Below, piece by piece: positions 5,135 through 62,229 of a stretch of DNA of 64,000 nucleotides. Each line of letters begins with the position of its first letter. The stretch's first letter is position 1. Both the position numbers and the translations under genes were made by a program. The notes under the pieces are model-generated. The model worked only from the letters and a program-made list of their open reading frames with translations. It was not told where the DNA came from and did not search any database. The stretch is from an uncultured Mycoplasmatota bacterium (GTDB lineage Bacteria > Bacillota_I > Bacilli_A > RF39 > UBA660), in assembly GCA_900547775.1 (NCBI GenBank), contig URHW01000003.1, positions 3,874 to 67,873 on the forward strand. Reading direction: 5' to 3'.

Positions 5135-6760
5135 TTAATTTACTATGTATGGGTCTTCTGATGTTCCTGTGCCACCTGAAATTGTGGCAGATGAAACGAT
5201 AGAAATTGAAGGACGGACCCCACTAGAGTCGTCCACGCTGTAGTTGACGAAGCTGCCATCGCTGCCGTCAACGCCCCAAACGACAGCCTTGCTGCCATCG
5301 AAGGAGCTAGGAGCCAAAGACCACCAATAAGTATCTGTAGCATTTTCTTGTAAATATGTTGTAGTATTTTCTAACATATAAGCATATCCTGCTAATGCTA
5401 ATTCATCTGCTGTTATTAAGCCTACTTTTGAATTTATTTTATTTAATTCTCCATTGCATTTTAAACTAGGACCAGTGCCTCCAGCACTATTATTTTTATT
5501 TACTAATCTTTGCGTAGCACCATAATATGTTATATTTGTACCATATCCTAAACCATTTGGATTCCAGCCATATGGATCATATGTTGTATCTGTTACATTT
5601 GTTTTATCATTGCACCATACAGTATCAGCTATTACTTTTTCATAATCTTTAAGATTATTCTTATCATACCAAGCCTCTAAATTAGTTAATATTGTACTTT
5701 TATTTGTATTTGCATGTGCGCTTGCATAATCACTTGTACCAACAGTACCATACTTAAATCCTACATAAGCATTATCATTATAGTTTGTATTAAATGCACT
5801 TTTATATGTTTCACCAGAATATCTTGCAAATGCTGCACTAGCACTATTATTTGCAGCATCACAAGGATTAGCTGCTCCAGTTGGATTATCATTATGTAAG
5901 ATAAGTTTTACTGAACCATCTCCTCCAACTCTTACTATTCTCCAGCACTTATTAGCAAATTCTACATAGTTGTTTTTTACAGCTCCTCTGAAATAATAGC
6001 TTGTTCCATAATCATCTACTGCAGATGCAAGTAATGCGTCATCAGCAGTAGATATAGCAGTTCCTGGTATGGTTATAGGTTCAGAGATTTCTATGCTATT
6101 TCTTAATGATGCAAGTAGAGTACCATTTCCAACCTCATACCATCCATTAGGTGCTGGCGCTGGTTCTTCTGCTGCATTACTTACTACTACTATTTTACCA
6201 GACCAGTTTTTGTTTAGGCCTTGTTCTGTTGTTACTGCACTATCCATCCAAATTCTTAGATCATAACTTTTTTCTTCGTTAGCTTTAAGTCCGGTATTAA
6301 TAATAATATAACCTTTTTTGTTGTTTTCTAAGTCTGTTAATGTTTGACTTCCTAATATAACGGATTTACTAGTGGTTGTACCTTTAGGTGATATATTTAC
6401 TTTCATATAGTTATCTTTTAAGTAAGATGTATTAGTACTTTCTCTATAAGTACTATCTATTGTAATATATACTTTATCATAACTATTACAGTTGTTTTTT
6501 ATTGTAAAAGTAAATGGGGGTTGTTTAAGACCATCTTCATCAGTTATTGGAAAAGCATCTGTTAAAGATATTTTAGATGTGTCTTCAGTAAGAGTTGTAT
6601 TAAAGCATGTTCTTGATGCTATAGTGTTATTTTCAGTTTGACTTAAGTAAAGTCTAAACCAAGCAAAAGAGACTCCAATTATGCACAGGACTGTTATTAA
6701 TAGTCCATAATATAATTTAAGTCTCTTCTTTTTATTATCTATATTTAATTCATGGTTCAT
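5135..6760 (-). CDS. Family A surface/secreted protein A1: TasA/camelysin-like N-terminus with SipW-type signal peptide, plus conserved Cys-containing C-terminal domain with hypervariable block
   Basis: N-terminal TM followed by SFAWF (A/Y-F-x-T/S-like SipW-cognate signal class); FTFTIKNNCNSY resembles TasA/CalY core; C-terminal ~300 aa about 90% nucleotide identical to 13366-15243 and 60421-62229; 4 conserved Cys. Confidence 0.7.
   Translation of the reverse strand: MNHELNIDNKKKRLKLYYGLLITVLCIIGVSFAWFRLYLSQTENNTIASRTCFNTTLTEDTSKISLTDAFPITDEDGLKQPPFTFTIKNNCNSYDKVYITIDSTYRESTNTSYLKDNYMKVNISPKGTTTSKSVILGSQTLTDLENNKKGYIIINTGLKANEEKSYDLRIWMDSAVTTEQGLNKNWSGKIVVVSNAAEEPAPAPNGWYEVGNGTLLASLRNSIEISEPITIPGTAISTADDALLASAVDDYGTSYYFRGAVKNNYVEFANKCWRIVRVGGDGSVKLILHNDNPTGAANPCDAANNSASAAFARYSGETYKSAFNTNYNDNAYVGFKYGTVGTSDYASAHANTNKSTILTNLEAWYDKNNLKDYEKVIADTVWCNDKTNVTDTTYDPYGWNPNGLGYGTNITYYGATQRLVNKNNSAGGTGPSLKCNGELNKINSKVGLITADELALAGYAYMLENTTTYLQENATDTYWWSLAPSSFDGSKAVVWGVDGSDGSFVNYSVDDSSGVRPSISIVSSATISGGTGTSEDPYIVN
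5219..5308 (-). other. Putative DGR variable region (VR) of A1
   Basis: 30-codon block aligning gaplessly with the equivalent blocks of A2 and A3; differences confined to codon positions 1-2 with position 3 fixed (C/T); GC3-rich codons atypical for this genome; conserved 3' flank GTCCGTCCTTCAATTTCT. Confidence 0.6.
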
Positions 6761-6785: not shown

Positions 6786-6813
6786 AGTATATAACAACCC
6801 CCCCCCGTGTCAA
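6786..6813 (-). promoter_or_regulatory. Promoter of A1: TTGACA -35, 16-nt spacer containing G9 tract, TATACT -10
   Basis: Minus-strand reading TTGACA-CGGGGGGGGGTTGTTA-TATACT about 20 nt upstream of the ATG; homologous A3 promoter is TGGACA-17-TATAAT. Confidence 0.65.
6798..6806 (-). repeat. Homopolymeric G9 (C9 on plus strand) tract in promoter spacer, candidate slipped-strand phase-variation switch
   Basis: Nine consecutive C on plus strand; the only long G/C homopolymer noticed in an AT-rich window; placed between -35 and -10. Confidence 0.8.
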
Positions 6814-13365: not shown

Positions 13366-15243
13366 TTATTTTACGATGTATGGATTTTCACTGGTACCAT
13401 TTCCGGTTACGTTGGTAGAGGGCTTAAGAGAAATTGAAGGACGAACTGCGCAAATGTTGTTCACGCTGTTGTTGAAGATGCTGCTAATGCCGCCGGAAAC
13501 GAACCAAGCGATAGCGAAGTCACCATTGAAGCCGATAGGAGACAAGGACCACCAATTATCACCAGTAGCATTTTCTTGTAAATATGTAGTTGTATTTTGT
13601 AATCCCAATGCATATCCTGCATATGCTAGTTCATCTGCTGTTATTAAGCCTACTTTTGAATTTATTTTATTTAGTTCTCCATTACATTTTAAACTAGGGC
13701 CCGTGCCACCAGCACCACCACTTGTACTTATTAATCTTTGTGTAGCACCATAATATGTTATATTTTTTGCATATCCTGAACCAGTAACATTCCTCCAACC
13801 CAAAGGATTATAAGTTTTATCTGTTACATTTGTTTTATCATTACACCATATTGTATCAGCTATTTTATCAGCATAATCTTTTAAATTATTTGTATACCAA
13901 GTTTCTAAATTAGTTAGTATTGTACTATTATTTGTATTTGCATGTGCACTTGGATATTCACTAGCACCAGCAGTACCATACTTAAATCCTACATATGCAT
14001 TATCATTATAGTTTGCATTAAATACACTTTTGTATGTTGTACCAGAGTATCTTGCAAATGCTGCACTAGCACTATTATTTGCAGAATCACAAGGATTAGC
14101 AACTCCTGCTGCATTATCATTATGTAAGATAAGTTTTATTGAACCATCTTCACTAATTCTTACTATTCTCCAGCATTTATTAGCAAATTGTACGTAATTA
14201 TTTTTTACTGCTCCTCTAAAATAATAACTTGTTCCATAATCATCTTCTGTACTCGCTAATAAGGCTTCGGTTTTATTTTTATTGGTACATAAGGGTTTAT
14301 ATGTGAAACTACTTGATGTAGCGCTTACTACATAATATACGCAATTTAAATTAGTTGTAGTCATCATTGTTCCAGCAGTACTTGAACCAAAACTGTATTG
14401 TTCTCCATGAGTTAAATATTTACCTACTAAGTCAGAATATGAATTAGCATATGTATCACTTGTTACTGCTATTCCTGTTAAATTAAATTTTGTACCATTT
14501 GCTTCCCAGCCTGTTCCATAGGTTATATAATATGCTTGATATTTTGATGATACACTTGTAGTTCGACTTTCGGCATCATCTAAAGTATGTGCACTCACTT
14601 CCTTTCCAGGTGTAGTTATTGGTGCATTTACTTCATTTTTTGCTAGTATAGTTTCTGAAAAAGTAGATGTAGTAGGTGCTTTATCACTTGTTATCTCTAC
14701 ATGAGCACTAAATGCTGCTCCTTGATTTGCGTTTTGGCTAGTTGCTTTCTTAGGATAATATATCTTTAATAGATATGTATGTTTTGCATTATTTGCTTTT
14801 ACAAAGTGTCCCTTACCTAATTCAATAGATGTACCCGTAATATCAGTTTTTGATATTGTTGGTATAACTTCTCCATTTGTACTTGTATTAGTACTTACTA
14901 GTTCATATTGTAATGGATCATCTGTTTTAAATGTGTTTGAGTCTACTACTAAAGTTAACTTATAGTACATTTCAGCATCTGTTGTATTATTACCAGTTAC
15001 TGTTATAGTTTTTGTAGCCCATACATCATCTTTAGGATATATTCCAGCTAGATCAATATTTGCTCCTCCATCATAAGTTATTTTCATTGTTCCGGCATCA
15101 GCTCTTACTGTAGTACTATTTTCAGAACTCATTCCAGCAGTAAAGAATGCATATGTTGCTCCAATAAAGATTATTGCAACAAGGATTCCAATATATAAAT
15201 ATATTTTTTTAAATTGTTTATCCATTTTACTATCTCCTATCAT
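13366..15243 (-). CDS. Family A protein A2: camelysin/TasA-like N-module (type II) plus conserved C-terminal domain with hypervariable block
   Basis: N-terminus YAFFTAGMSS…AGTMKITY resembles SipW-cognate signal and TasA/CalY start; first 185 aa homologous to ORF 46350-46907; C-terminal 300 aa paralogous to A1/A3. Confidence 0.7.
   Translation of the reverse strand: MIGDSKMDKQFKKIYLYIGILVAIIFIGATYAFFTAGMSSENSTTVRADAGTMKITYDGGANIDLAGIYPKDDVWATKTITVTGNNTTDAEMYYKLTLVVDSNTFKTDDPLQYELVSTNTSTNGEVIPTISKTDITGTSIELGKGHFVKANNAKHTYLLKIYYPKKATSQNANQGAAFSAHVEITSDKAPTTSTFSETILAKNEVNAPITTPGKEVSAHTLDDAESRTTSVSSKYQAYYITYGTGWEANGTKFNLTGIAVTSDTYANSYSDLVGKYLTHGEQYSFGSSTAGTMMTTTNLNCVYYVVSATSSSFTYKPLCTNKNKTEALLASTEDDYGTSYYFRGAVKNNYVQFANKCWRIVRISEDGSIKLILHNDNAAGVANPCDSANNSASAAFARYSGTTYKSVFNANYNDNAYVGFKYGTAGASEYPSAHANTNNSTILTNLETWYTNNLKDYADKIADTIWCNDKTNVTDKTYNPLGWRNVTGSGYAKNITYYGATQRLISTSGGAGGTGPSLKCNGELNKINSKVGLITADELAYAGYALGLQNTTTYLQENATGDNWWSLSPIGFNGDFAIAWFVSGGISSIFNNSVNNICAVRPSISLKPSTNVTGNGTSENPYIVK
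13447..13536 (-). other. Putative DGR variable region (VR) of A2
   Basis: Same 30-codon block as in A1/A3; contains AAC AAC AGC GTG AAC AAC; variation versus paralogs at codon positions 1-2 only. Confidence 0.6.
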
Positions 15244-19706: not shown

Positions 19707-20222
19707 CTAACTACCTGCTTGTTCATTTGTAGATGGTGTTGATGTACTGCATGTTGCACTTGCACAAGAACTAGTAATACCACCGCTTCCATTAGCAATA
19801 TTACTACTAGTATTTAGATCAGTGTATGTTGAACCTTTAGTACTGTAACTATTATCTGTTAATGTAACACGATAAGTAGCTTCTCTTTTATCGTCCAAAG
19901 AAACCGTAACATAGCCTTTAAAATTTCCAGATGAAGTAAGGCCTATACCGGCAAGTGTATAGCAATAACAATTATCGTTTATTTTTTTTCTGTTGTCATC
20001 ACTAGTATTTGTTGGTAATGTTCCAAGTAAGTCTTCTGATTGGAATGTACTTTCTGCATTACCTAAGGCTCTTTGAGCATAGATTTTAAATGAACCTTTT
20101 TTAGCGTTATTCATACTTTCTACTACGGCTGGAATTGCAATGATCATAATGATTGCTAAAACTACGATAACCGCTAGTAACTCAACTAATGTAAATCCTT
20201 TTTTATTACCTTTTATTTTCAT
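19707..20222 (-). CDS. Type IV pilin / pseudopilin-like protein (ComGC-like N-terminus)
   Basis: Prepilin class III signal KGFTLVELLAVIVVLAII with Gly-1, Phe+1, Glu+5; Cys/Ser/Thr-rich C-terminal tail. Confidence 0.7.
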   Translation of the reverse strand: MKIKGNKKGFTLVELLAVIVVLAIIMIIAIPAVVESMNNAKKGSFKIYAQRALGNAESTFQSEDLLGTLPTNTSDDNRKKINDNCYCYTLAGIGLTSSGNFKGYVTVSLDDKREATYRVTLTDNSYSTKGSTYTDLNTSSNIANGSGGITSSCASATCSTSTPSTNEQAGS

Positions 20223-23485: not shown

Positions 23486-26400
23486 CTAATTGAATTTCTT
23501 CTTTAAAATAGCTAGTAATATAAGTCCTAAAGCGCTAGTGCCCATTAGACTATATTCTAATAGATAACTATCACCTTCAATTCCAGTGTATGGAATATCT
23601 GGTTCTCCGTTAGTATCATCTCCACCTTCACCCATAACGAATTGGTATACATAGGTTACAACGATATCTTCTTTAGTATATTTACCTTTTACTTCGCCAA
23701 TAGTATTGATTAGTTCATAATCAGTGATAGTAGCTGGACTAGTTTGATAATCTGTACCAACTTGTCCATTAGTAGTAGTTTCTTCTAAAAGTACTTTACC
23801 ATCTTCATCAACATATTTAGTAATAACTTTACCCATATCTTTCTTGTAGTAGTAAATTACTTCAGTTACTTCATCAGTAAACATTCCACTAGCATTTTCT
23901 GGAGTACTTACTAAAATGTATCCATAAACATCTGCTTCTTTAGTAGTATAGTCTTTACTTACTTTACCATTAATAGTTTCATCTTCAGCAATTTTAATTG
24001 TAGTACCTTCTTCATAATGGTGAACAATTACTTTAGCATCCTTTAGAGAATAGATAAATGTAATTGTATTATCACTACTTTTTAATTTAATAGTTTGCTC
24101 TGTAGCACTTTCTAAATTATAGTTAGCAAATACTTTATTATCAGTTTCATCTTTAGCATAAGCAGTATAATTATCATTAATTCTACCAGTATCTTTAACT
24201 GGGTTAATTAAATCTATTACATTACCATCTTTGATTGTTACATATCTTACAGTAACATCAGTCTTCTTTAATTGATAGTAGAAAGTTGCTTCTTGCTTTT
24301 CACTTGTTAAAGTTCCACTTGTTGTACCTTTACTTTCTACATATTCATAGTCACCTAATTCTTCTGTTTTAGGACTAAATGAGAAAGATGTACCAATTTT
24401 ACCATTAACAACGTCATCTTTGAATAATTCTGTTGTTGTTTTATTACCATTATTATCAATGATATAGTGATGAGCTACGGCTCCAGCACTTTCAGCCTTT
24501 TCATAGTAGAAAGTATATTCTTTAGTAGTTAAATCAAATGTTGCGTTTTGAGTCTTGCTACCAACTACAACATAGTCTTTAATATCTTTAGCATTAATTA
24601 CTTTTGTTTCAGTTACTTTACCATCAAAAGTATCATCATCTACTAATTTTGTATTAGTATCTTTTTCTACATAATGAACAATAATCTTAGAATCTTTAAG
24701 TTCATAATAGAAATTGATAACATTTCCTTCTTTAGCAAGGGTAATAGTTTCTTGATTATTACTTACTAAATTATAATTATTTAAAGTTAAAGCGTATTCT
24801 GTAACCTTATCCCCAATATATAAGTCTCCATTATTAGCGTTCTTAGAAATTGTTTTACTATCAGCTACTTTTTTATTAGAGCCTTTTTCTAAGTAGTTAA
24901 CAGTGTATTCTGCTGTAACACCCTTTACTGTGATAGTAACAGTTGAAACTTCTGACTTTGCATAAGTTTTATTTCCTTCTTTATCTGTGATTGTAGTTTT
25001 AATATAATATGTGAAATTATCATCACCACGGAAATTGTTATTTGGATTATATTTAAGTGATCCATCTTGATTAAGTTCTAGTGAACCATATTTTGTATTG
25101 TTAACGATTACAATTTCATCTAGTACACTTTTAGCTTCAGCTTCTTGTTTTCCTTTGTAATCATTAGATTTAATACCATCATTAGCATCTACTACTAATT
25201 CTTCATTAGTATTTGTTTCATAATTATCGTCCATAGTTCTTGGTGCAATAGGTGCAACAGGGTTGATTAGGTTTTCATTAATCTTACCATCAACATTTTC
25301 ATAGAACTTATTACCATCAGCAGCGGTACCAGTAACAGTAGCACCATTATTAGTGTACATACTACCATAATAATTTTCATTTGCTGTTACAGTAAATTCT
25401 AATTCTTCTGGTTTTTTAGAAGATAATTCATTAAATTTATAGATAATTATTGTTTGATCTTTTTCTTCAACAATTTCTACGGCATCGTCATATTTTTCTT
25501 TTAAAGCAACTTTATCAACAGTGAATGTACTTGGAACAACGTCTCTAATAGTTAAGTCTTTAGCAACAACTTCTATATCTTTTGATACAGCAGCAAATGC
25601 TTCGTTTAATTTAGCACTATCATTTGCATCAAAGTATCTGCCACCATTTTTAACAATTGATTGTAAAAATTTTTCAGCATCACTATCAGCACCTACTCCA
25701 AAGCCAATTGAGTATATTTTACCAGTAAATGATTCTGCTTCTTCTTTTGCAGCCTCACTAGGTTTTTTCATGTAACCAGCATCACATGCTCCTACAATTT
25801 CATATCCTTCATACCAGTCAAGATATTTAGAATAATATCCTCTCGCCTCACATTTATAAGTTGTGCCATCAACTCTATCTTCATATGTGGCATATCCATC
25901 CCTAACATAATTTCCATTTAGTTCATATCTGTCTGATGTTGATGTAAAACCTATAGTACTTAGACTCTCATGTTCATCTGTTTTTCCTGTACCATGAGTA
26001 TGTTGCACTCCATCTTTAACTGTTGTAAAGAACGTTGGAAGTCCATCTGAAAGAACAATTAAGTCTTTTTCATTCTTTTTGTCAGTAAACAATTTCTTTG
26101 CTTCTCTGATACCTTCTTGAACGTTAGTTCCACCATCTGCTGCTTCTTCACTGTTTAAGCAAGCATCTAACTTTGCAGCATCATCTGAAAGTGCACATGT
26201 TTTAGTTACGTTAGTATCATACCAAACTACGCCAATCTTGATTTTTCCCTTATTTTCTTCTACTAGTAGGCTATCGATGAAGGCATCAGTAGCATCTTTT
26301 AGTGTGTCTAGTTTAGATTTACTAGCATTTACTAAATAATCTTTCATACTTCCTGATGAGTCTAGAACAAGTACTATTTCTCTATCGCTTTGTTCTGTTA

Positions 26401-26605
26401 TGGTGTATGGATTACCACTTACAGTTATTTTAACTTTAGCACTTCTACTAGTTTCATCACCGATACGTTCTGCAGTTTTAGTAGCAGTAACTTTACCAGC
26501 GTTTGGATTAGTATCAGCAAATACAACAAAAGTATTACCAAATACAGAAGTAATTGTTATAACTAATGCCATAAGTAACTGACCTAAATTTTTCAATTTT
26601 TTCAT
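23486..26605 (-). CDS. Cell-wall anchored adhesin: signal peptide, vWA domain, about five MucBP-like repeats, C-terminal sorting signal IPYTG
   Basis: MIDAS motif VLVLDSSGSM; repeated V-x-V-x-Y-V-x-x-D-G…TFYY modules; C-terminus IPYTG plus hydrophobic stretch plus KKKFN. Confidence 0.75.
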   Translation of the reverse strand: MKKLKNLGQLLMALVITITSVFGNTFVVFADTNPNAGKVTATKTAERIGDETSRSAKVKITVSGNPYTITEQSDREIVLVLDSSGSMKDYLVNASKSKLDTLKDATDAFIDSLLVEENKGKIKIGVVWYDTNVTKTCALSDDAAKLDACLNSEEAADGGTNVQEGIREAKKLFTDKKNEKDLIVLSDGLPTFFTTVKDGVQHTHGTGKTDEHESLSTIGFTSTSDRYELNGNYVRDGYATYEDRVDGTTYKCEARGYYSKYLDWYEGYEIVGACDAGYMKKPSEAAKEEAESFTGKIYSIGFGVGADSDAEKFLQSIVKNGGRYFDANDSAKLNEAFAAVSKDIEVVAKDLTIRDVVPSTFTVDKVALKEKYDDAVEIVEEKDQTIIIYKFNELSSKKPEELEFTVTANENYYGSMYTNNGATVTGTAADGNKFYENVDGKINENLINPVAPIAPRTMDDNYETNTNEELVVDANDGIKSNDYKGKQEAEAKSVLDEIVIVNNTKYGSLELNQDGSLKYNPNNNFRGDDNFTYYIKTTITDKEGNKTYAKSEVSTVTITVKGVTAEYTVNYLEKGSNKKVADSKTISKNANNGDLYIGDKVTEYALTLNNYNLVSNNQETITLAKEGNVINFYYELKDSKIIVHYVEKDTNTKLVDDDTFDGKVTETKVINAKDIKDYVVVGSKTQNATFDLTTKEYTFYYEKAESAGAVAHHYIIDNNGNKTTTELFKDDVVNGKIGTSFSFSPKTEELGDYEYVESKGTTSGTLTSEKQEATFYYQLKKTDVTVRYVTIKDGNVIDLINPVKDTGRINDNYTAYAKDETDNKVFANYNLESATEQTIKLKSSDNTITFIYSLKDAKVIVHHYEEGTTIKIAEDETINGKVSKDYTTKEADVYGYILVSTPENASGMFTDEVTEVIYYYKKDMGKVITKYVDEDGKVLLEETTTNGQVGTDYQTSPATITDYELINTIGEVKGKYTKEDIVVTYVYQFVMGEGGDDTNGEPDIPYTGIEGDSYLLEYSLMGTSALGLILLAILKKKFN

Positions 26606-26640
26606 AACCTTTTCCCTCCTAAATCTATATTAAACAATCT

Positions 26641-27348
26641 TTAAAGATTGATTAATTTCCTACTACTAACAATAAGATAATCTCTTGTTCCATCAAGCAA
26701 ACACGTTTGAAGGATTAAAATATCATCAGATTCGGTAACCTTAACATCTGAATTATATAAAGCATTTTCTCTAATTTTATTTATGTGACCTAAAAAGTCA
26801 TTTGTCTTAAGGGTCATATGTTCATCATCTTTTGTTCTTTTGACGGAAAAGATTTGATAAGTACTAACACCATTTTCATTTTCCAAATAAATTAAGTCAT
26901 TATTTTTTGTAAAATCAGGGTCTAAATACATTCTAAGATTTTTAAAAGCGACATCATACTTATTTGAGTTATGACCATATATGTTTATTTGTTTGTCTTC
27001 AAAAGTATTTCGGTAATCCATGAATACGGCACCAATTCGGCTTTTTTCTTTTTTTAGTGTGTGGTTTAGATAATAAGTGTTATTAGTTGTTTTAACAAAT
27101 AACGTATTAATATCGGCACCCGGCACGCTTATAGAGCCAGCAATATCCTCATTACCATATTCTTGTTTGAAATTGTAATACTTTTCCTTTAAATTTGTTT
27201 CTTTGTCTTCTTTATCTTCCTTGATAACGCCTTCAAGAGCGACAATTTTTAATTTTTCATCATTGTGATGACGAATAATTATAAGACCTAAAGAGGACAT
27301 AAAAACAATTAGACAAAGGCTAAATAAAACATAATACCATTTTTTCAT
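26641..27348 (-). CDS. Sortase (class B-like)
   Basis: N-terminal TM, IYGHN His region, ILQTC catalytic Cys (TLxTC), downstream Arg; 235 aa. Confidence 0.75.
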   Translation of the reverse strand: MKKWYYVLFSLCLIVFMSSLGLIIIRHHNDEKLKIVALEGVIKEDKEDKETNLKEKYYNFKQEYGNEDIAGSISVPGADINTLFVKTTNNTYYLNHTLKKEKSRIGAVFMDYRNTFEDKQINIYGHNSNKYDVAFKNLRMYLDPDFTKNNDLIYLENENGVSTYQIFSVKRTKDDEHMTLKTNDFLGHINKIRENALYNSDVKVTESDDILILQTCLLDGTRDYLIVSSRKLINL

Positions 27349-46349: not shown

Positions 46350-46907
46350 TTACGCACCTTTTGTTCCAGTAACTTCTATATGAACTTTGATGTTTGCTCC
46401 CATATCTGCTGATTGATCGGTATTTGTATCTTTATAAAATAGTTTTAATGTATAAGTATGAACTTTACTACTAGCATTTTTAAATGAACCAGTACCTAGA
46501 GTAACAGATGAACCGGTTATGTCTGTTTCTGGGATATCACTAATAATGGTTCCATTACTTCCAGTGTTTTCACCAGCTAATGTATAACTTATTGGGCTTT
46601 TAAATGTATTATTATCTACAACTAGTTTAACTTCATATGGCATGTTAATTTCTTTTGTCGTGTTAGTTCCGGTTACTGTAAATACTTTAGTAGCAAATGC
46701 TTCATCATTTGGAAGAAGTTTATTGGCAGTTATTTTGCTACCACCATCATAGACTATTTTCATAACTCCAGCATTACTTGTAATACTTGTATTATCTTCT
46801 CCAGCACTCATACCGCTTGTAAAGAAGGCATATGATATTGTTATTCCAATAATTGCTATAATAAGGACGCAAATTATATAAAATAATGTTTTATTACGTT
46901 TATTCAT
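46350..46907 (-). CDS. Stand-alone camelysin/TasA-like protein (family A short member, N-module type II only)
   Basis: SipW-type signal ISYAFFTSGMSAG; colinear with first about 185 aa of A2; lacks conserved C-domain and VR. Confidence 0.65.
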   Translation of the reverse strand: MNKRNKTLFYIICVLIIAIIGITISYAFFTSGMSAGEDNTSITSNAGVMKIVYDGGSKITANKLLPNDEAFATKVFTVTGTNTTKEINMPYEVKLVVDNNTFKSPISYTLAGENTGSNGTIISDIPETDITGSSVTLGTGSFKNASSKVHTYTLKLFYKDTNTDQSADMGANIKVHIEVTGTKGA

Positions 46908-51519: not shown

Positions 51520-52230
51520 TTATTCTTTGCTTAATGTTTTGCCACCTTCAAGAGATTTTAATTTTGCTCTCATGCTAATTATTAGTTCTCCTAAAGTTTC
51601 GCCTTCGGCTCCACCCTCTATTAGAATTTCTTTGACAAGATCAAGTATTTCTGGATCCCCACCTTCAAGTTCATATCCACGTAATAGATAATCTGTAAGA
51701 GTTAAAGCGGCATCAAATTTAGCATTTTTTTCTTCATCCTGGTCAAGTTCTTCCTTGACTTCTAAACTCTTTTTAATTTTTATGTTAATTGTATTTTGGT
51801 AGTTTTCGATTCTCCTAACTAGTTTTGTACCTCTACTTGATATTGCTAGAACGTAATCGTTGGTTTCTTGGTGCGCATAATCAGCACCGATTAGTAATCT
51901 GTACTCGATTAGTTCTAAAAAGATTGCAAAAAATGGACTACCTAAAAGAAATAAGATAATGTTTAGCACGGTGCCTATTTTAAATCCAAGTTTAAAGGTT
52001 TTGTAAGTTTGATTTCCTGTTTTAGACATGTATTCAACAGTATCAGCGACTTCATTTATTCCTTCACAAGTATCATTTAACTTGCAATTCATGCTTAATA
52101 ATTCTTCTTTTGTAAAAGTTTTTCCGGCATATAAATTTTCACTTACTGAATCTATTTCTTTTTCTATTTCATCGCAACTTCTGTCTAAAATGTGTAGCAT
52201 ATTTTTTTTACTTATAAATATTTTTTTCAT
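51520..52230 (-). CDS. Family B paralog B1: coiled-coil N-terminus, 2-TM hairpin, C-terminal domain (divergent)
   Basis: Architecture shared with next three genes; own consensus promoter. Confidence 0.5.
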   Translation of the reverse strand: MKKIFISKKNMLHILDRSCDEIEKEIDSVSENLYAGKTFTKEELLSMNCKLNDTCEGINEVADTVEYMSKTGNQTYKTFKLGFKIGTVLNIILFLLGSPFFAIFLELIEYRLLIGADYAHQETNDYVLAISSRGTKLVRRIENYQNTINIKIKKSLEVKEELDQDEEKNAKFDAALTLTDYLLRGYELEGGDPEILDLVKEILIEGGAEGETLGELIISMRAKLKSLEGGKTLSKE

Positions 52231-52255
52231 AATATCCCCATAAAATTGTTCGTAT

Positions 52256-52284
52256 ATTATAACTCGTAAGTGTATTTATGTCAA
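52256..52284 (-). promoter_or_regulatory. Consensus sigma-A-type promoter for B1 (TTGACA-17-TATAAT)
   Basis: Minus-strand TTGACA, 17-nt spacer, TATAAT, about 25 nt upstream of B1 ATG with GGGGA RBS. Confidence 0.6.
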
Positions 52285-52289
52285 ATAAA

Positions 52290-52310
52290 AAGTCAGCAAT
52301 ACATTGACTT
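52290..52310 (-). terminator. Rho-independent terminator between B2 and B1
   Basis: AAGTCA-9 nt-TGACTT hairpin followed by TTTTATTT on minus strand. Confidence 0.5.
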
Positions 52311-52549
52311 AAAACAGTATTATATTCTTTACACTTTTCTTCTAATAGTTTAAAATATCAGCATCTATTTATGACATTTTGCGGTAGTAATCATTTTATA
52401 TATTTTTCATATAATGTATTTGATTTTAAATAAATATTAGTTTTATTGGAATTTAACCATCTTAACTGATGATTCTAGTTCTTTGAGCGAGATTTATAAT
52501 GATTGTTCTTATCAATTGTTCCTGTTTTCATGATAATGGGTTAATTAAC

Positions 52550-53233
52550 TTAGTTTAAATGTTTTTCTAAGGCTACGTACTTATTCATTTTACTTCTTTT
52601 TAGTTCGACTAGTTCTTCAATACTTGCATTAGGATAGTTTTCATCTTTTAAAAGCTCCTTAACAATACTTTTTACTAGGGTATTCTCAATATTAATACTG
52701 CTGCCATCAAGTAAAAGTCTAACACATTCTAATGCTTTTTCGTAAGCATCATTAAAATTTATTCCAAATACTTCACTGTCATCAATTTCTTTGCTTCTCA
52801 TTTTCATTCTATTTGAAGCATTTTTTTGGTATCTATGGATGCGATAGTTTTGAAGTCCAGTACTATCCTTGATTGCTTCTAAATCAGTTATGGTTGTGTT
52901 TCCTATGCTTTTTATTATTATACCAAGTTCAGCGGATAATAATATAATTGCTAAGCCAAAATTTATAAAACTACTACCTAACACTAATAAGGTAAGTACT
53001 GCGTATGCAAGGTATGATTTATGAGATTGTTTTATGGTCTTAGTTATATCATTGTTAAGGTTTTCTTTTAAGTGTTCATTTTCTCTAAGAAGTTCATTTA
53101 GATTATTACTTATACTAGTAAGTTCACTATTTTGTACATCTAAACTATATAATTTTTTATAAATCTCTTCTAAGTTTGAATCGATTTTCTTAAGTTTTTT
53201 TTCATGTGTCTTTGCAATATTTTCCTTCTTCAT
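52550..53233 (-). CDS. Family B paralog B2
   Basis: Coiled-coil plus 2 TM plus C-terminal motif ELLKDENYPNASIEELVEL. Confidence 0.5.
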   Translation of the reverse strand: MKKENIAKTHEKKLKKIDSNLEEIYKKLYSLDVQNSELTSISNNLNELLRENEHLKENLNNDITKTIKQSHKSYLAYAVLTLLVLGSSFINFGLAIILLSAELGIIIKSIGNTTITDLEAIKDSTGLQNYRIHRYQKNASNRMKMRSKEIDDSEVFGINFNDAYEKALECVRLLLDGSSINIENTLVKSIVKELLKDENYPNASIEELVELKRSKMNKYVALEKHLN

Positions 53234-53253
53234 AATTCATCTCCTTTTGTTTA

Positions 53254-53934
53254 TTATTCTGTAAATGCCTTTTTAAGTACCATTTCTTTGCTTCGTTTTT
53301 CTTTTGCCAGTTCTAATAGTTCGGTAATACTTGCGTTTGGATGGTCTTCATCTTTTAAAAGTTCTTTTACAATCATTTCAATATATGGCGATTCAAGATC
53401 TGGTTCAGCACCTTCAAGTAACATTTCAACATATCTAACTGATAAGTCAAAAAGCATTTCAAGTTCTTCGCCCACCCACACATCATTATTTATATTTTTA
53501 CTGGTACTTTTTACTTTTTCAATGATTCCATTTTTGTAACTAGTTATTCTGCTTTTCTGTCCATAAAGTTCTAAAAGTAGTTCATTAAGTTCTTCTACTT
53601 CGGTGCATCCTTTATATTTATATACAGAGACAACACTTAATGCAGTAAGTACTAGTCCAATTGGCAAATTGATAAAACATATTCCAATACTTATTAATGA
53701 TAGTATTGTACGGATTAAAATATTTCGTGATGCTCCTTTATTATAACTTTCAATCATGTTTATAACTTCATATAATAAGTTTTCGTTATCTTTCATCTTT
53801 TCATTTAAAGATAGGCTTAACTTTCCAAGTTCCTTTAAAGATAGGTTCTTACCATATAGTTCATAACTTATATCATTTAATTTTCTTTCACTTTCTTCAT
53901 AACTCTTTGTTAGTGACTTATATTCTTTTTTCAT
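53254..53934 (-). CDS. Family B paralog B3
   Basis: C-terminal motif ELLKDEDHPNASITELLEL; same architecture. Confidence 0.5.
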   Translation of the reverse strand: MKKEYKSLTKSYEESERKLNDISYELYGKNLSLKELGKLSLSLNEKMKDNENLLYEVINMIESYNKGASRNILIRTILSLISIGICFINLPIGLVLTALSVVSVYKYKGCTEVEELNELLLELYGQKSRITSYKNGIIEKVKSTSKNINNDVWVGEELEMLFDLSVRYVEMLLEGAEPDLESPYIEMIVKELLKDEDHPNASITELLELAKEKRSKEMVLKKAFTE

Positions 53935-53947
53935 AATTTTCTTCCTT

Positions 53948-54628
53948 TTAATTAGTTTTAAATTTTTTTAGTAATGGTGGGGTGTCTAATTGTTGGCGTC
54001 TAATATTAACCAGCTCTGGGATGGTCGCATTTGGGTAATTATCATCTTTAAGTAGTTCTAAGACTACCGCTTTTAATAGAGGAGACTCAATCTTAATATC
54101 TTTGCCACTTAGAAGCCCTTCAACACAGTTTACTGCATTATCAAAAATAGCTTCTAGTTCTCTACCAGACCATTCTTTTTCGTCTATTACTTTTTTGCTA
54201 TGAAAAGTTTTTGTTTCAATTTCTTTTTTTAATCTAGTAATTTTTATCTTTTGTTCATATTCTTGCGTTTTCATCTTTTGCAAACTCTTATAATCTACGT
54301 CAAATAAATTCTTGCCTAATATTCCTGCATTAATTAGTAAAAATAATACTGCTAGTGGCCTATTTATAAGACACATTATAAAGATTATGAGTCCAATAAT
54401 ATTTCCAGCAATAAATCTTTTAACAGTTTCTTTTTCATTTTTATCTAGTTCTTCATCAATTTTGTCATTAATTCTTTGATTTTCACTAATAGCTTTGTTT
54501 AATTCCATTTTTAAACTTCCAAGTTCATTTAGAGGAATATTATTTTCGGAAAGTTTTAAGCCAACATTATTTACTAATTTTTTATTATCGTCTAGTTCTG
54601 CACTTAATTTTTTTATAGTTTTTTTCAT
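53948..54628 (-). CDS. Family B paralog B4
   Basis: C-terminal motif ELLKDDNYPNATIPELVNI; start placed at MKKTIKK to match paralogs. Confidence 0.5.
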   Translation of the reverse strand: MKKTIKKLSAELDDNKKLVNNVGLKLSENNIPLNELGSLKMELNKAISENQRINDKIDEELDKNEKETVKRFIAGNIIGLIIFIMCLINRPLAVLFLLINAGILGKNLFDVDYKSLQKMKTQEYEQKIKITRLKKEIETKTFHSKKVIDEKEWSGRELEAIFDNAVNCVEGLLSGKDIKIESPLLKAVVLELLKDDNYPNATIPELVNIRRQQLDTPPLLKKFKTN

Positions 54629-54754
54629 TATAAACCTCCCTTTTTTACCAAGCAAAAATTATTCTAACACACGCCTTTTTTTCAGTCAAACGAATGAATG
54701 GTAATGAACTTAAAATGTGTCAAATAAGTATCAAAAAAAGGACTAATTTGTCCT

Positions 54755-58749: not shown

Positions 58750-58818
58750 CTTAAGATACTAGTAAATTTTATCACAACATTTTAATTTGTCAATAGCCTT
58801 ACAAAATATATTTAAAAA

Positions 58819-58849
58819 CTCGGGTAGCCGTATGCAAGAACTACCCGAG
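58819..58849. other. GC-rich perfect hairpin CTCGGGTAG-13 nt-CTACCCGAG
   Basis: 9-bp perfect inverted repeat, unusually GC-rich for the window; T-rich on both sides. Confidence 0.5.
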
Positions 58850-59016
58850 GATAATATTTTTAAAACTAATTTGCAACCTTACTTCCGGACACTTTTTTAA
58901 ATATAATAAAACAACACTTTTTATCGTCTGTACTCTTTCACCTTTCTAAATTGATAAAACAACTTCTTTTTGATATTATTAATTTACCATAAAAAACTAG
59001 CAAAGGAAGTCGTTCT

Positions 59017-60136
59017 ATGAATAAATTATATAATAAAGAAATGGATATTGCAATCGGTTTGAATGATTTTTTCAGTCAAATCGATTTTAAATTTTCAAAA
59101 CCTCAATTAAAGGTTTTACCGCATTTAATTATGGCTGCTATTAATGCCGAAAATATTACAAATTTAGATTTAGCAAAGAATTATATTGACGATTCTCTTT
59201 TAACAAATCATTCTTCTATTGAAAAGAAAATATGGAGGTTTCTCAATAATCACAAATTTGATGGTATCAAATTCTTTAAAGCTGTAGTTAAGAAAATTAT
59301 CAAAAAAATTGGGGCTTTAAAGCACAATAAACTAGTTGTTATTTTAGATCACATGTATACTAATGACGACTTTGTTACTTTAATGTTTACTTTGAAAATC
59401 GGTAAACAATCTATCCCTATCCACTTTATTAATGATAAAGATAAAAGAAGCGGTCATTATGACATTAATGATGATGATAGAAAATTTTTATTTTCTTAAA
59501 AAGTTATCATTGAAGCAATCGATTATGTTATTGTTCTTTTATCATGTATCAATGCACCTATCACTTTTCTTGATGATAGGTGGTTTTGTAATTTTGCCCT
59601 TATGCGTCATATTCATAAAAAATGTCATTTTTTCTGTATCAGAGCTAAAGTTAATTCTGATTTAAAGAGTTCTAATCTATGATAAAAAAGAAAAACATTA
59701 CATTTACAAAAAACTTTCAAAATTAACTGTCCAAAAATATCATGCTTTATATTATAAAAATATTTCAGTTGGCAAACATCATTTTAAATGCAATTTATCA
59801 ATTGGCAGAGGTAATCAAATCGATGATCCATGGTTTATTTTATCTAATATTGAACCTAATCAAGCAATCCGTGAATATTCACATCGTTTTGGTGGTATTG
59901 AAATGTTTTTTAAATCTCAAAAATCCAATGGTTTCAATTTAAAAAAACTAGAACTAGAAACCTTCATACTTTTGAAAATTTATACAGCATTATTTGTTTT
60001 GCTGGGCTTTGACTTAGTATTCTTGCAATTGACTATACTAAAAATTATGCTCATGTTAAAAATTATCTTAATATTAGATATATTAAAAATAACAAAAATG
60101 GTAAGCCTATTCGCATATTATCTATATTTAATTTAG
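59017..60136 (+). mobile_element. Degenerate IS4/IS1634-family transposase (pseudogene fragments)
   Basis: N-terminal fragment 59017-59499; C-terminal in-frame fragment 59666-60136 containing YSHRFGGIEMFFKSQKS (YxxRWxIExxFKxxK-type motif); central DDE core missing or frameshifted. Confidence 0.55.
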
Positions 60137-60274
60137 GTCTTACTATCTTTCGAAGATGTTTCAATTCTTATATAAACTATAAAATCAAGACGAACATGCA
60201 GCTCTACCTATGACTTATACAAAATTTTAGTTTTACTTTTTATGTTAAATTATCATTTAACACTTTTTGTCATG

Positions 60275-60322
60275 AAAAAAACTGCAATAAAATTTCATTT
60301 TTGAAAAATATTGCAGTTTTTT
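60275..60322. terminator. Bidirectional rho-independent terminator between IS remnant and A3
   Basis: 13-bp stem AAAACTGCAATAT/ATATTGCAGTTTT with A-run upstream and T-run downstream. Confidence 0.6.
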
Positions 60323-60420
60323 ATATTCAAATTTATCAAAACCAGCCCAAATTAATATATCAATAAGTTATACGCTCACAAACCCTTTATTTATCTAGGC
60401 TTAATCAAAAATGTCCGGTA

Positions 60421-62229
60421 TTAAGTACTTATTATGAATGGGCTATCACTGGTACCATTTCCGGTTACGTTGGTCGTCGACTTAAGAGAAATTGAAGGAC
60501 GGACGCCGTAAGTGAGGAACACGTAGTTGCCGCCGAAGTAGCCATTGCTGCCGATAACGTACCAAACGCTAGCGCCGGCACCATAGAAGAAGTAAGGAGA
60601 CAAGGACCACCAATAAGTATCCGTAGCATTTTCTTGTAAATATGTTGTAGAATTTTGTAATCCATAAGCATATCCTGCTAATGCTAACTCATCTGCTGTT
60701 ATTAAGCCTACTTTTGAATTTATTTTACTTAATTCACCATTACATTTTAAACTTGGACCCGTACCACCAGCACTACCACTAGTACCTACTAATCTCTGTG
60801 TAGCACCATAATATGTTACATTTTTAGCATATCCTAAACCATTTACGTTACTGTAATTATAAGGGTTAAATGTTGTATCTGTTACATTTGTTTTATCATT
60901 ACACCATACAGTATCAGCTATTACTTTTTCATAATTTTTAAGATTATTCTTTTCATACCAAGCCTCTAAATTAGTTAGTATTGTACTTTTATTTGTATTT
61001 GCATGAGTAAGAGCATAGTCACCAGCACCAACAGTTCCATACTTAAATCCTACATATGCATTATCATTATAGTTTGTATTAAATGCACTTTTATATGTTT
61101 CACCAGAATATCTTGCAAATGCTGCAGTAGTACTATTATTTGCAGAATTACATGGATTAGCTGCTTTTGCAGTATTATCATTATGTAAGATAAGTTTAAC
61201 TGAACCATCTCCACCAACTCTTACTATTCTCCAGCACTTATTAGCAAATTCTACATAGTTATTTTTAACTGCTCCTCTAAAGTAGTATGATGTACCATAA
61301 TCATCAGGAGTACTTGCTAAAAGTGCTTCACTTGCAGTAGATACTTCTTTTCCTGGTGCAGTTATTGGAGTCTTTACTTCATTATTTGCTAGAATTGCTT
61401 CTGCTAAAGTTGGCTTTTTTGTTTCAAATGTAGCATTACACCTTACATTACCATCACTAATTGCAGTTGTAAGAATCCATTTTGTTCCATTCCAAGTTAT
61501 ACTTTCGTTAGCATCTATCTTTTTACCATTTCTAGTACACTCTACAGATGCTGTATATTTATCTGTTGTTGGAAATGTACTACTTTCAACTCCATCTATT
61601 AGAGCTGCAACATATAAATCATCTTTTGGTCTTGTCTTAACAGTTCCTACTACTGATATTTTTACTTGATAGTTTTTACCTTCAATATCTTCTTTAGTCC
61701 AGATATCTTTATTATTACTATCAAGCCACATTCTAAAGTTAAATGTTCTACTTTCATCTTTAGATATGCCATCTCCTCTTTTTAGGATATAGTTTTCAGT
61801 TATATTGTATTTAGATAGACTTTGCGGAGTAGATATAGATTCTAGAGTATTAATTACTGTACCATTTAAGTCATTGTCTCCTAGTAAAGATACTTTTACA
61901 TATTTAGAGTCTATTTTGTTAGTTGTACTAATTACGGATGCGATAACATAATACTCAATGTAGTTATCACATTTATTTTTTATAGTAAATGTGTATGGTG
62001 TTTGTTCTAAGGCTTCGCCTTCAGATATTGGGTAAGTATTAAGTAAATTAATTTCATTTTGTCCATTGAATTCTAAATCCATACATGATGCTGCTAGAGT
62101 GTTTGTATCAGTTTGACTTGAATAATTAGTAAATACCGCATAACTTACTCCAGTTATCATAAGTACTACTGCTAGCATTATACATAAAATTAACATTCTT
62201 TTTTTATATCTATAGAGACTATGGTTCAT
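60421..62229 (-). CDS. Family A protein A3: TasA/camelysin-like N-module (type I, as A1) plus conserved C-terminal domain with hypervariable block
   Basis: VSYAVFTNYSS signal class; YTFTIKNKCDNY; C-terminal 300 aa paralogous to A1/A2. Confidence 0.7.
   Translation of the reverse strand: MNHSLYRYKKRMLILCIMLAVVLMITGVSYAVFTNYSSQTDTNTLAASCMDLEFNGQNEINLLNTYPISEGEALEQTPYTFTIKNKCDNYIEYYVIASVISTTNKIDSKYVKVSLLGDNDLNGTVINTLESISTPQSLSKYNITENYILKRGDGISKDESRTFNFRMWLDSNNKDIWTKEDIEGKNYQVKISVVGTVKTRPKDDLYVAALIDGVESSTFPTTDKYTASVECTRNGKKIDANESITWNGTKWILTTAISDGNVRCNATFETKKPTLAEAILANNEVKTPITAPGKEVSTASEALLASTPDDYGTSYYFRGAVKNNYVEFANKCWRIVRVGGDGSVKLILHNDNTAKAANPCNSANNSTTAAFARYSGETYKSAFNTNYNDNAYVGFKYGTVGAGDYALTHANTNKSTILTNLEAWYEKNNLKNYEKVIADTVWCNDKTNVTDTTFNPYNYSNVNGLGYAKNVTYYGATQRLVGTSGSAGGTGPSLKCNGELSKINSKVGLITADELALAGYAYGLQNSTTYLQENATDTYWWSLSPYFFYGAGASVWYVIGSNGYFGGNYVFLTYGVRPSISLKSTTNVTGNGTSDSPFIIST
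60505..60594 (-). other. Putative DGR variable region (VR) of A3
   Basis: Same 30-codon block; NNC-type variation relative to A1/A2; conserved 3' flank GTCCGTCCTTCAATTTCT. Confidence 0.6.

Follow-up and report, generated by a model that had tools for sequence, protein, structure and literature searches.

Diversity-generating retroelements (DGRs) are very common in the human gut, and their targets in cellular Bacillota are poorly understood. Here we describe a family of DGR-type proteins in a 64-kb stretch of DNA (hereafter the window) from an uncultured Mycoplasmatota bacterium (contig URHW01000003.1). The window encodes three large members, A1, A2 and A3, each with an N-terminal and a C-terminal module (N- and C-module), and a short one, S. 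Known DGR targets with a lectin fold, namely Mtd of a Bordetella phage, TvpA of Treponema denticola, LdtA of Legionella and the phage DUF6273 'tentaclins' (PMC10743442), carry a variable region (VR) at the lectin-like C-terminal end, show adenine-specific variation in NNC codons templated by AAC/AAT, and are served by cassettes composed of a template repeat (TR), Avd and a reverse transcriptase (RT). The proteins described here share these features, the cassettes being found beside paralogues. They differ from the known targets in that a TasA/camelysin-like N-module with a SipW-type signal precedes their lectin-like domain, that the family comprises many chromosomal copies dispersed among housekeeping genes, and that no cassette adjoins the three window copies. 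We put at roughly 75% the probability that A1, A2 and A3 are exported surface proteins combining a TasA-like module with a lectin-like domain whose tip is a DGR variable region.

Several other systems invite comparison. In the Bacteroides type V pilus tip adhesins, as would be the case here, cellular DGRs of gut bacteria act on a surface- or fibre-associated protein and diversify its ligand-binding end (bioRxiv 10.1101/2024.11.15.621889). However, those pili are of the lipoprotein type, assembled by strand exchange in a diderm, whereas the present module is TasA-like, occurs in a monoderm and has a presumptive fibre state. According to the same study, cellular Bacillota DGR targets look like co-opted phage binding modules. 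With TasA, CalY and camelysin and their peptidase SipW (PMC9674648, PMC10151520), the family shares the N-terminal signal, the A-x-F motif, the 'AGxMxI' first strand, the beta-sandwich fold, a SipW-type peptidase (here in a relative) and a module-only protein, S, comparable in size to a fibre subunit. In contrast to these systems, no window protein meets the family cut-off and no tapA-sipW-tasA operon is present in the window; unlike TasA, the N-module of the family bears large C-terminal binding domains. The N-terminal domain of the Thomasclavelia ramosa immunoglobulin A (IgA) peptidase (PDB 9qa6; PMC12237041, PMC12402451) is likewise a DUF6273-type domain of ~290–300 aa from gut Bacilli. Its sequence similarity to the C-module is nevertheless undetectable, it has a zinc site and no disulfides where the C-module has four invariant Cys, and it is not reported as a DGR target. 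Finally, remote and multi-target DGR systems are already known: in Thiohalocapsa PB-PSB1 several targets per genome lie far from RT and TR, as here, but their matching TR was identified, unlike that of the window VRs (PMC10907252). Among the ten top-ranked matches of a full-text literature search, we found no publication combining DGRs with TasA, camelysin or SipW. The DGR mechanism with lectin-fold targets is known; its combination with a TasA/camelysin-like, probably SipW-processed scaffold, in a large dispersed family of an uncultured gut lineage, appears to be new.

DGR signature of the C-modules and cassettes in related genomes

All four family open reading frames (ORFs) are on the minus strand of the window, which has a G+C content (GC) of ~30%. 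A1 (5135–6760, 541 aa) consists of a type I N-module, a short linker and a C-module. A2 (13366–15243, 625 aa) has a type II N-module, a middle region of ~130 aa and a C-module, and A3 (60421–62229, 602 aa) a type I N-module, a middle region of ~100 aa and a C-module. Matches to hidden Markov models placed the two modules at aa 3–199 and 243–541 in A1, and at aa 6–189 and 328–625 in A2. S (46350–46907, 185 aa) is a type II N-module alone. The original prediction, made from the sequence of the window, had located these four genes correctly. Its view of a family restricted to four did not hold, since at least 527 relatives exist, with up to ~20 per genome, and it had missed both the hypervariable last ~60 codons of the C-module and the DGR signature.

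A sliding dN/dS analysis revealed a patch near the end of the C-module (last ~60 codons) with omega well above 1; among A1 alleles, aa 481–540 were by far the most variable part. The three window VRs, located in these last ~60 residues of the DUF6273-related domain, have 42 codons each without indels between copies, and lie between WWSLSP and GVRPSIS: 5201–5326 in A1 (aa 479–520, WWSLAP...GVRPSIS), 13429–13554 in A2 (aa 564–605) and 60487–60612 in A3 (aa 540–581), all on the minus strand. No other 126-nt stretch of the 64 kb has a GC of 0.48 or more; their own values are 0.57, 0.49 and 0.53 in A1, A2 and A3, respectively, compared to 0.32–0.33 gene-wide. C occupied the third base in 20/42 VR codons of A1 compared to 45/499 in the rest of the gene (p = 1.6e-9), in 21/42 compared to 38/583 for A2 (p = 1e-12) and in 23/42 compared to 41/560 for A3 (p = 8e-14). 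The variable codons are of the NNC/NNT type (AGC, TCC, GAC, GGC, TAC, TTC etc.), and the three copies differ from one another at 46 sites, 40 of which occupy codon position 1 or 2. Adenine was rare at invariant VR sites, with 4/80 compared to 43/103 in a control taken as the stretch 60 nt upstream of the VR (Fisher p = 5e-9), and 1/61 across 15 VRs of the window type from five genomes. Across the family, the third-position C fraction is bimodal: one clade, which includes the three window copies, at least 14 copies in the genome CAKOOK and several in URUT, JAUNFS and CAKOJR, shows values of 0.40–0.57, and the other members 0–0.2. These results make it very likely that A1, A2 and A3 carry DGR-written variable regions.

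Complete cassettes were observed in related genomes. A search of the fetched loci for RT motifs revealed RT genes of ~290 aa adjoining family members in loci L028, L041 and L052. The L028 target gene (159–2297) contains a VR at 2118–2235 and is accompanied by a TR at 2582–2699; the pair is 86% identical and 16 of its 17 mismatches fall at TR adenines. For the L041 pair (VR 1019–1140, TR 1542–1663), this was the case for 20/20 mismatches. The TRs of the cassettes read WWSLSPNNFNGDNANVWNVN..., that is, runs of AAC/AAT codons. In L028, a MutS_I ORF, an Avd-like ORF (NF033474, E = 2e-5) and the RT (RVT_1, E = 1e-13) come after the TR, and L052 contains the same genes. The ORF between TR and the Avd-like gene encodes 138–143 aa (L028:2886–3299, L041:1842–2267, L052:685–1113); its L028 copy, the sole one scanned, matched Pfam MutS_I (MutS domain I) with E = 1.2e-7.

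The cassette-linked VRs lie exactly between WWSLSP and (V/L)RPSIS, which is the hypervariable patch of A1, A2 and A3. The L028 target has the same N-plus-C architecture as A3 and is 78% identical to it over the first 310 aa. In CAKOJR, a complete cassette located downstream in the same orientation has the A3-type gene (78% over 310 aa) as its cognate target. The two-module architecture, the DGR signature in the window and the adenine-specific mismatches in cassettes beside paralogues of this same architecture were each observed directly. When tested against other VRs of matching length, the TRs of L028 and L041 (TR28 and TR41) fitted their adjacent targets only, so that one cassette does not serve all copies. 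In a DGR, an error-prone RT copies an AAC/AAT-rich TR, misreading adenines, and the resulting cDNA replaces the VR.

As the cassette is not in the window, A1, A2 and A3 would be remote targets in trans, or former targets. A trace of a cassette may exist downstream of A3. On the minus strand, the frame 59765–59715 reads KYFYNIKHDIFGQLILK, 17 aa matching the RT motif KKYFYNINHDIL (tblastn E = 0.1–0.4), and 58849–58778 matches the sequence immediately 3′ of the RT in L028 and L078. The stretch between A3 and marR (58778–60420) contains no intact minus-strand ORF, and in CAKOOK (L006) the A3 orthologue is directly followed by marR. With low to moderate confidence, 58778–60420 (minus strand) may represent a decayed DGR cassette. 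The opposite strand of this stretch carries a 160-aa ORF (59017–59499, plus strand) with a weak match to DUF559 (E = 0.0015, below cut-off), followed by shorter plus-strand ORFs up to 60136 which may be its frameshifted continuations.

The C-module (5138–6034, minus strand, aa 243–541 in A1) is a domain of ~300 aa common to A1, A2 and A3 and, as had been proposed, contains four conserved Cys; these were invariant across 35 and across 89 homologues. Pfam DUF6273 (PF19789) matched A3 at aa 499–584 with 24.2 bits (gathering cut-off 23.5) and 12 of 35 aligned family C-modules (best E = 9e-7); A1 and A2 individually gave no match. DUF6273 is C-type-lectin-like and a DGR target domain in gut phages (PMC10743442), and has been solved as an enlarged domain of the C-type-lectin-like kind (CTLD), ~290 aa long and N-terminal in the T. 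ramosa IgA peptidase (PMC12237041). In a structure search with an AlphaFold2 (AF2) model of the C-module, the CTLD of this peptidase came out on top and almost all the remaining matches were CTLDs, with low Z. Since the AF2 model itself failed, the evidence for a lectin fold consists of the Pfam match, the published accounts and these low-Z matches. They suggest that the C-module is a divergent DUF6273 domain with an enlarged C-type-lectin-like fold, in line with the earlier idea of a lectin-like domain as in DGR targets. The 42-codon VR would form its ligand-binding tip.

N-module, signal segment and SipW

The N-termini of A1, A2, A3 and S consist of a basic stretch followed by a hydrophobic segment of ~20 residues, ending in SFA-WF, TYA-FFT, SYA-VFT and SYA-FFT in the four proteins. 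In a six-frame motif search of the window, this signal-end motif was confined to the four family genes, consistent with the AWF, AFFT and AVFT endings pointed out previously. Among homologues, the hydrophobic segment ends in a conserved [ST]-[YF]-A-x-F, and the residues at positions −3 and −1 relative to the presumed cut after A are small. In the A1 N-module (6161–6760, minus strand, aa 1–200), the signal or anchor segment extends to S-F-A/W-F and precedes a beta-rich domain. N-modules fall into the two types proposed initially, with protein identities of 32–36% between A1 and A3, 46–47% between A2 and S, and 20–28% across types. S corresponds to an N-module alone, as noted before, but it is a paralogue of the A2 N-module, at 47% identity, and not its equal. 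The A1 N-module was near-invariant among A1 alleles, with a column entropy of ~0.1.

An AF2 model of S (predicted local distance difference test score, pLDDT, 79) showed a helix (aa 3–31), a disordered part (27–37) and a ten-strand beta-sandwich. Foldseek with this model returned nothing at E ≤ 0.001. In its list, TasA (prob 0.98, TMq 0.39) had the top TM-score and the longest alignment; other beta-sandwiches were equally good. PDB sequence searches, run with the proteins one by one and also with profiles of the two modules, gave no matches. A profile of the N-module retrieved 6,592 proteins from 1.84 billion cluster representatives. In nearly all of the 150 best matches, of 181–995 aa, the module was at or near the N-terminus (one exception starts at residue 97). 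Among 100 representatives, its C-terminal partners included DUF285/PARCEL repeats, DUF6273, Flg_new, BspA-type leucine-rich repeats (LRR_5), RCC1, dockerin and others.

Of these representatives, 13/100 matched Peptidase_M73 (camelysin/TasA) at E ≤ 0.01, the best with E = 9e-6. For the three N-only members examined, the match covered profile positions 2–85, corresponding to the signal peptide and first strands, and scores were just under the gathering score of 22.5 bits. The cognate_SipW profile (TIGR04088) matched 2/100 representatives at E ≤ 0.01, and A2 itself with E = 0.024 and 14.8 bits (cut-off 19). These sub-threshold matches, together with the structural alignment to TasA, suggest that the N-module is a remote relative of TasA/camelysin, and to this extent agree with the likeness first proposed. 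The module is outside the curated Peptidase_M73 family as defined by its cut-off.

No sipW-like motif was found in the window by motif search, as had been stated. A signal peptidase I of the archaeal/SipW type (TIGR02228, 85 bits compared to a cut-off of 52) is encoded in the closely related genome JAUNFK (EF-P 97% and RRF 96% identical in protein sequence to those of the window). This peptidase (L047, JAUNFK010000003.1, 18745–19842, 366 aa) has an N-terminal extension of ~230 aa opening with hydrophobic segments. On either side of the peptidase gene lies a small signal-anchored ORF (176 and 204 aa; L047:18150–20473), an arrangement reminiscent of tapA-sipW-tasA; neither ORF gave a profile match.

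We infer with moderate confidence that the signal site is cleaved by an archaeal/SipW-type signal peptidase. A1, A2 and A3 would be exported via a Sec-type hydrophobic signal and cleaved at [ST]-[YF]-A. The mature protein would comprise a beta-sandwich N-module of ~150 aa followed by an enlarged CTLD of the DUF6273 kind, S being the N-module alone. Surface display or fibre assembly would presumably occur via the N-module.

Extent of the family and genomic context

A1 has more than 6,000 database relatives. The C-module profile detected at least 527 copies in species-representative genomes, all from uncultured gut metagenome-assembled genomes labelled Bacilli, 'Tenericutes', Mollicutes or Erysipelotrichaceae, or from bins labelled otherwise, with 7 to ~20 family copies per genome. 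The 113 family ORFs in the fetched loci comprised 72 of the N-plus-C type, 31 with a C-module only (including some cut by a contig end) and 10 N-only ORFs like S. Genomic positions are conserved across species: family genes in relatives are located beside hrcA, between efp and lon, and beside marR, and syntenic S orthologues follow pbp2b in L055 and L059.

In CAKOOK, the nearest relative, the hrcA-grpE DNA is 94–99% identical to that of the window. Identity falls to 75–90% in the A1 orthologue, whose linker is replaced, and the drop sets in abruptly at the gene boundary. In L047, an A1-type N-module is fused to a different C-module. Such fusions, together with the many C-terminal partners of the N-module, provide good support for the domain shuffling proposed initially. 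The middle regions of A2 (aa ~190–325, ~14270–14675) and A3 (aa ~200–300, ~61330–61630), which have no counterpart in A1, are unlike each other and matched no Pfam family in whole-protein scans; an insert of the A2 type (…YYxTYGTGxxANGxKFNLTG…) recurs in many homologues, as judged from their consensus.

A promoter-like site for A1 is found at 6813–6786, and a hairpin followed by a T-run is located 3′ of its stop codon. The remaining window genes are housekeeping genes, e.g. grpE, hrcA, frr, lon, efp, the mraZ-rsmH-ftsL-pbp2b cluster and proS. Some other genes of the window are of note. One of them (19707–20222, minus strand) encodes a 171-aa protein whose N-terminus carries GFTLVELL, a methylation motif like that of type IV pilins (Pfam N_methyl, E = 6.5e-8); no further pilus genes were visible beside it. 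Within 23486–27348 (minus strand), a signal-bearing protein of 1,039 aa shows many repeats, a hydrophobic C-terminal tail and a D-x-S-G-S motif, presumably of the kind known from VWA domains. The 235-aa ORF directly upstream (26641–27348, minus strand) we take, by eye, to be a sortase. Together these two genes look like a second, conventional surface-display system. Four tandem paralogues of ~226–236 aa (51520–54655, minus strand) appear, by eye, to combine an N-terminal half of coiled-coil type with a hydrophobic segment in the centre; the C-terminal motif ELLKDENYPNASIxELV is common to three of the four.

Alternative explanations and biological significance

Several observations weigh against the reading of A1, A2 and A3 as exported, TasA-like proteins with a DGR variable tip. 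The A1 VR was identical on ~10 contigs, a nearly identical strain had a single substitution in it, and in a strain with ~1% flank divergence 9 of its 126 sites differed; mutagenesis would consequently be at most occasional, or have stopped. Neither the window nor 115 fetched loci yielded a TR for the window VRs: blastn of the VRs against the window gave only self-matches of the three VRs, a query with the inferred TR detected only the L028-type repeat in the fetched loci, an RT-profile scan of metagenomes yielded 36 loci of which none had a matching TR, and a pattern scan of viral contigs for TRs found nothing. TR41, the only TR of the window VR length and hence the only one tested on the window copies, mismatched these at 22–24 of 89 non-A sites. 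The 64-kb window contains no intact RT or Avd gene. On the protein side, Peptidase_M73 did not match any of the four window proteins at E ≤ 1, none of the window proteins attains the curated cut-off of Peptidase_M73 or TIGR04088, and the AF2 model of the C-module was poor (pLDDT 45).

Part of this evidence would be accounted for if the tips were frozen relics, written by a past DGR whose cassette was lost except for the decayed remnant 3′ of A3, and now evolving slowly. The RT-motif remnant and the RT 3′ flank on the same strand downstream of A3, the complete cassette in the same orientation downstream of the A3-type gene of CAKOJR (the synteny of the two loci not being established), the lack of TR, Avd and intact RT in the window and the identity of the A1 VR in many samples are all consistent with this. 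However, the remnant amounts to ~50 nt with tblastn E = 0.1–0.4, the L028 cassette serves a VR of 40 codons compared to 42 for the window type, and CAKOOK, with at least 14 VRs of the same signature, suggests a working cassette elsewhere in the lineage; moreover, only 64 kb of the genome are in view. We regard this as a real possibility, if short of even odds, and present-day activity of the retroelement in the window genome remains presumptive. Comparable in standing, and likewise tentative, is the idea of a membrane-anchored stalk, in which an uncleaved signal anchor holds the protein and the N-module merely spaces the lectin-like domain, with neither SipW processing nor polymerisation. The N-terminal segment is the sole hydrophobic stretch of the proteins, which have no C-terminal anchor or sortase motif, and the stalk model would fit the TasA/SipW profile matches all under curated cut-offs, the generic beta-sandwiches returned by the fold search and the lack of sipW in the window. 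It fails to explain why [ST]-[YF]-A-x-F, with small residues at −3 and −1, is conserved exactly at the end of the hydrophobic segment, and why Peptidase_M73 repeatedly matches precisely the signal and first strands. A related genome encodes a SipW-type peptidase, and the N-only protein S would have no obvious role if the module were a mere spacer.

The resemblance among the C-modules was originally ascribed to gene conversion, with ~90% nucleotide identity between copies. We measured 82–84% for DNA (61% to 97% across single 90-nt windows) and 74–79% for protein. An account in which gene conversion homogenises the C-domain, the tip evolving by point mutation under diversifying selection, draws on synonymous divergence (dS) of 0.30–0.37 in C-modules compared to ~1 or more in N-modules, on the p = 0.04 obtained for A1-A3 in a GENECONV-like run-length permutation test outside the VR, and on A1 alleles that are mosaics with clustered differences, from which it follows that recombination does occur. 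The imported residues match A2 or A3 only partly, and the run tests (0.58 and 0.39 for the other two pairs) were uncorrected for three comparisons, none being significant after correction; on these grounds gene conversion among the window copies was rejected. Furthermore, neighbour joining of 96 C-modules did not group the window's three copies by genome, each being 75.5–82% identical to copies of other genomes and 74–79% to its window paralogues. Concerted evolution of the C-domain is thus not supported. Point mutation would leave unexplained the NNC codons, the GC of 0.5 in a 30%-GC genome and the adenine-poor invariant sites, so that the ordinary-mutation account of the tip is largely refuted and the combined explanation is improbable. 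As DGRs of gut phages are known to target DUF6273, the genes could also encode receptor-binding proteins of integrated phages, comparable to tail-fibre-type DGR targets. However, each lies by itself amid housekeeping genes (hrcA/frr, efp/lon, proS/marR, pbp2b), in a position conserved from species to species; A1, A2, A3 and S carry signal segments, no phage genes are nearby in the window, and the scan of viral contigs for the TR pattern was negative. Phage origin was rejected on gene context, and we consider it hardly credible.

Taken together, we favour exported surface proteins with a TasA-like module and a DGR-diversified, lectin-like tip. In a more far-reaching version, one or a few cassettes would rewrite, in trans, the tips of a dispersed battery of three copies in the window and at least 14 in CAKOOK, and the proteins would be carried on SipW-processed, fibre-forming TasA-like modules, with S as the plain subunit. 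This version appears rather unlikely; if true, a monoderm would possess a programmable repertoire of adhesins borne on fibres. GC-rich islands of NNC codons offer a simple, annotation-free flag for DGR targets in AT-rich genomes. The family, from an abundant, uncultured gut lineage, would give the DGR modules of Bacillota a concrete context: exported, with a TasA/camelysin-like front end, and in many chromosomal copies at conserved positions. It would also provide a testable system for trans-acting, multi-target mutagenic retrohoming, for the display of diversified binding proteins by a monoderm and for their ligands in the gut.

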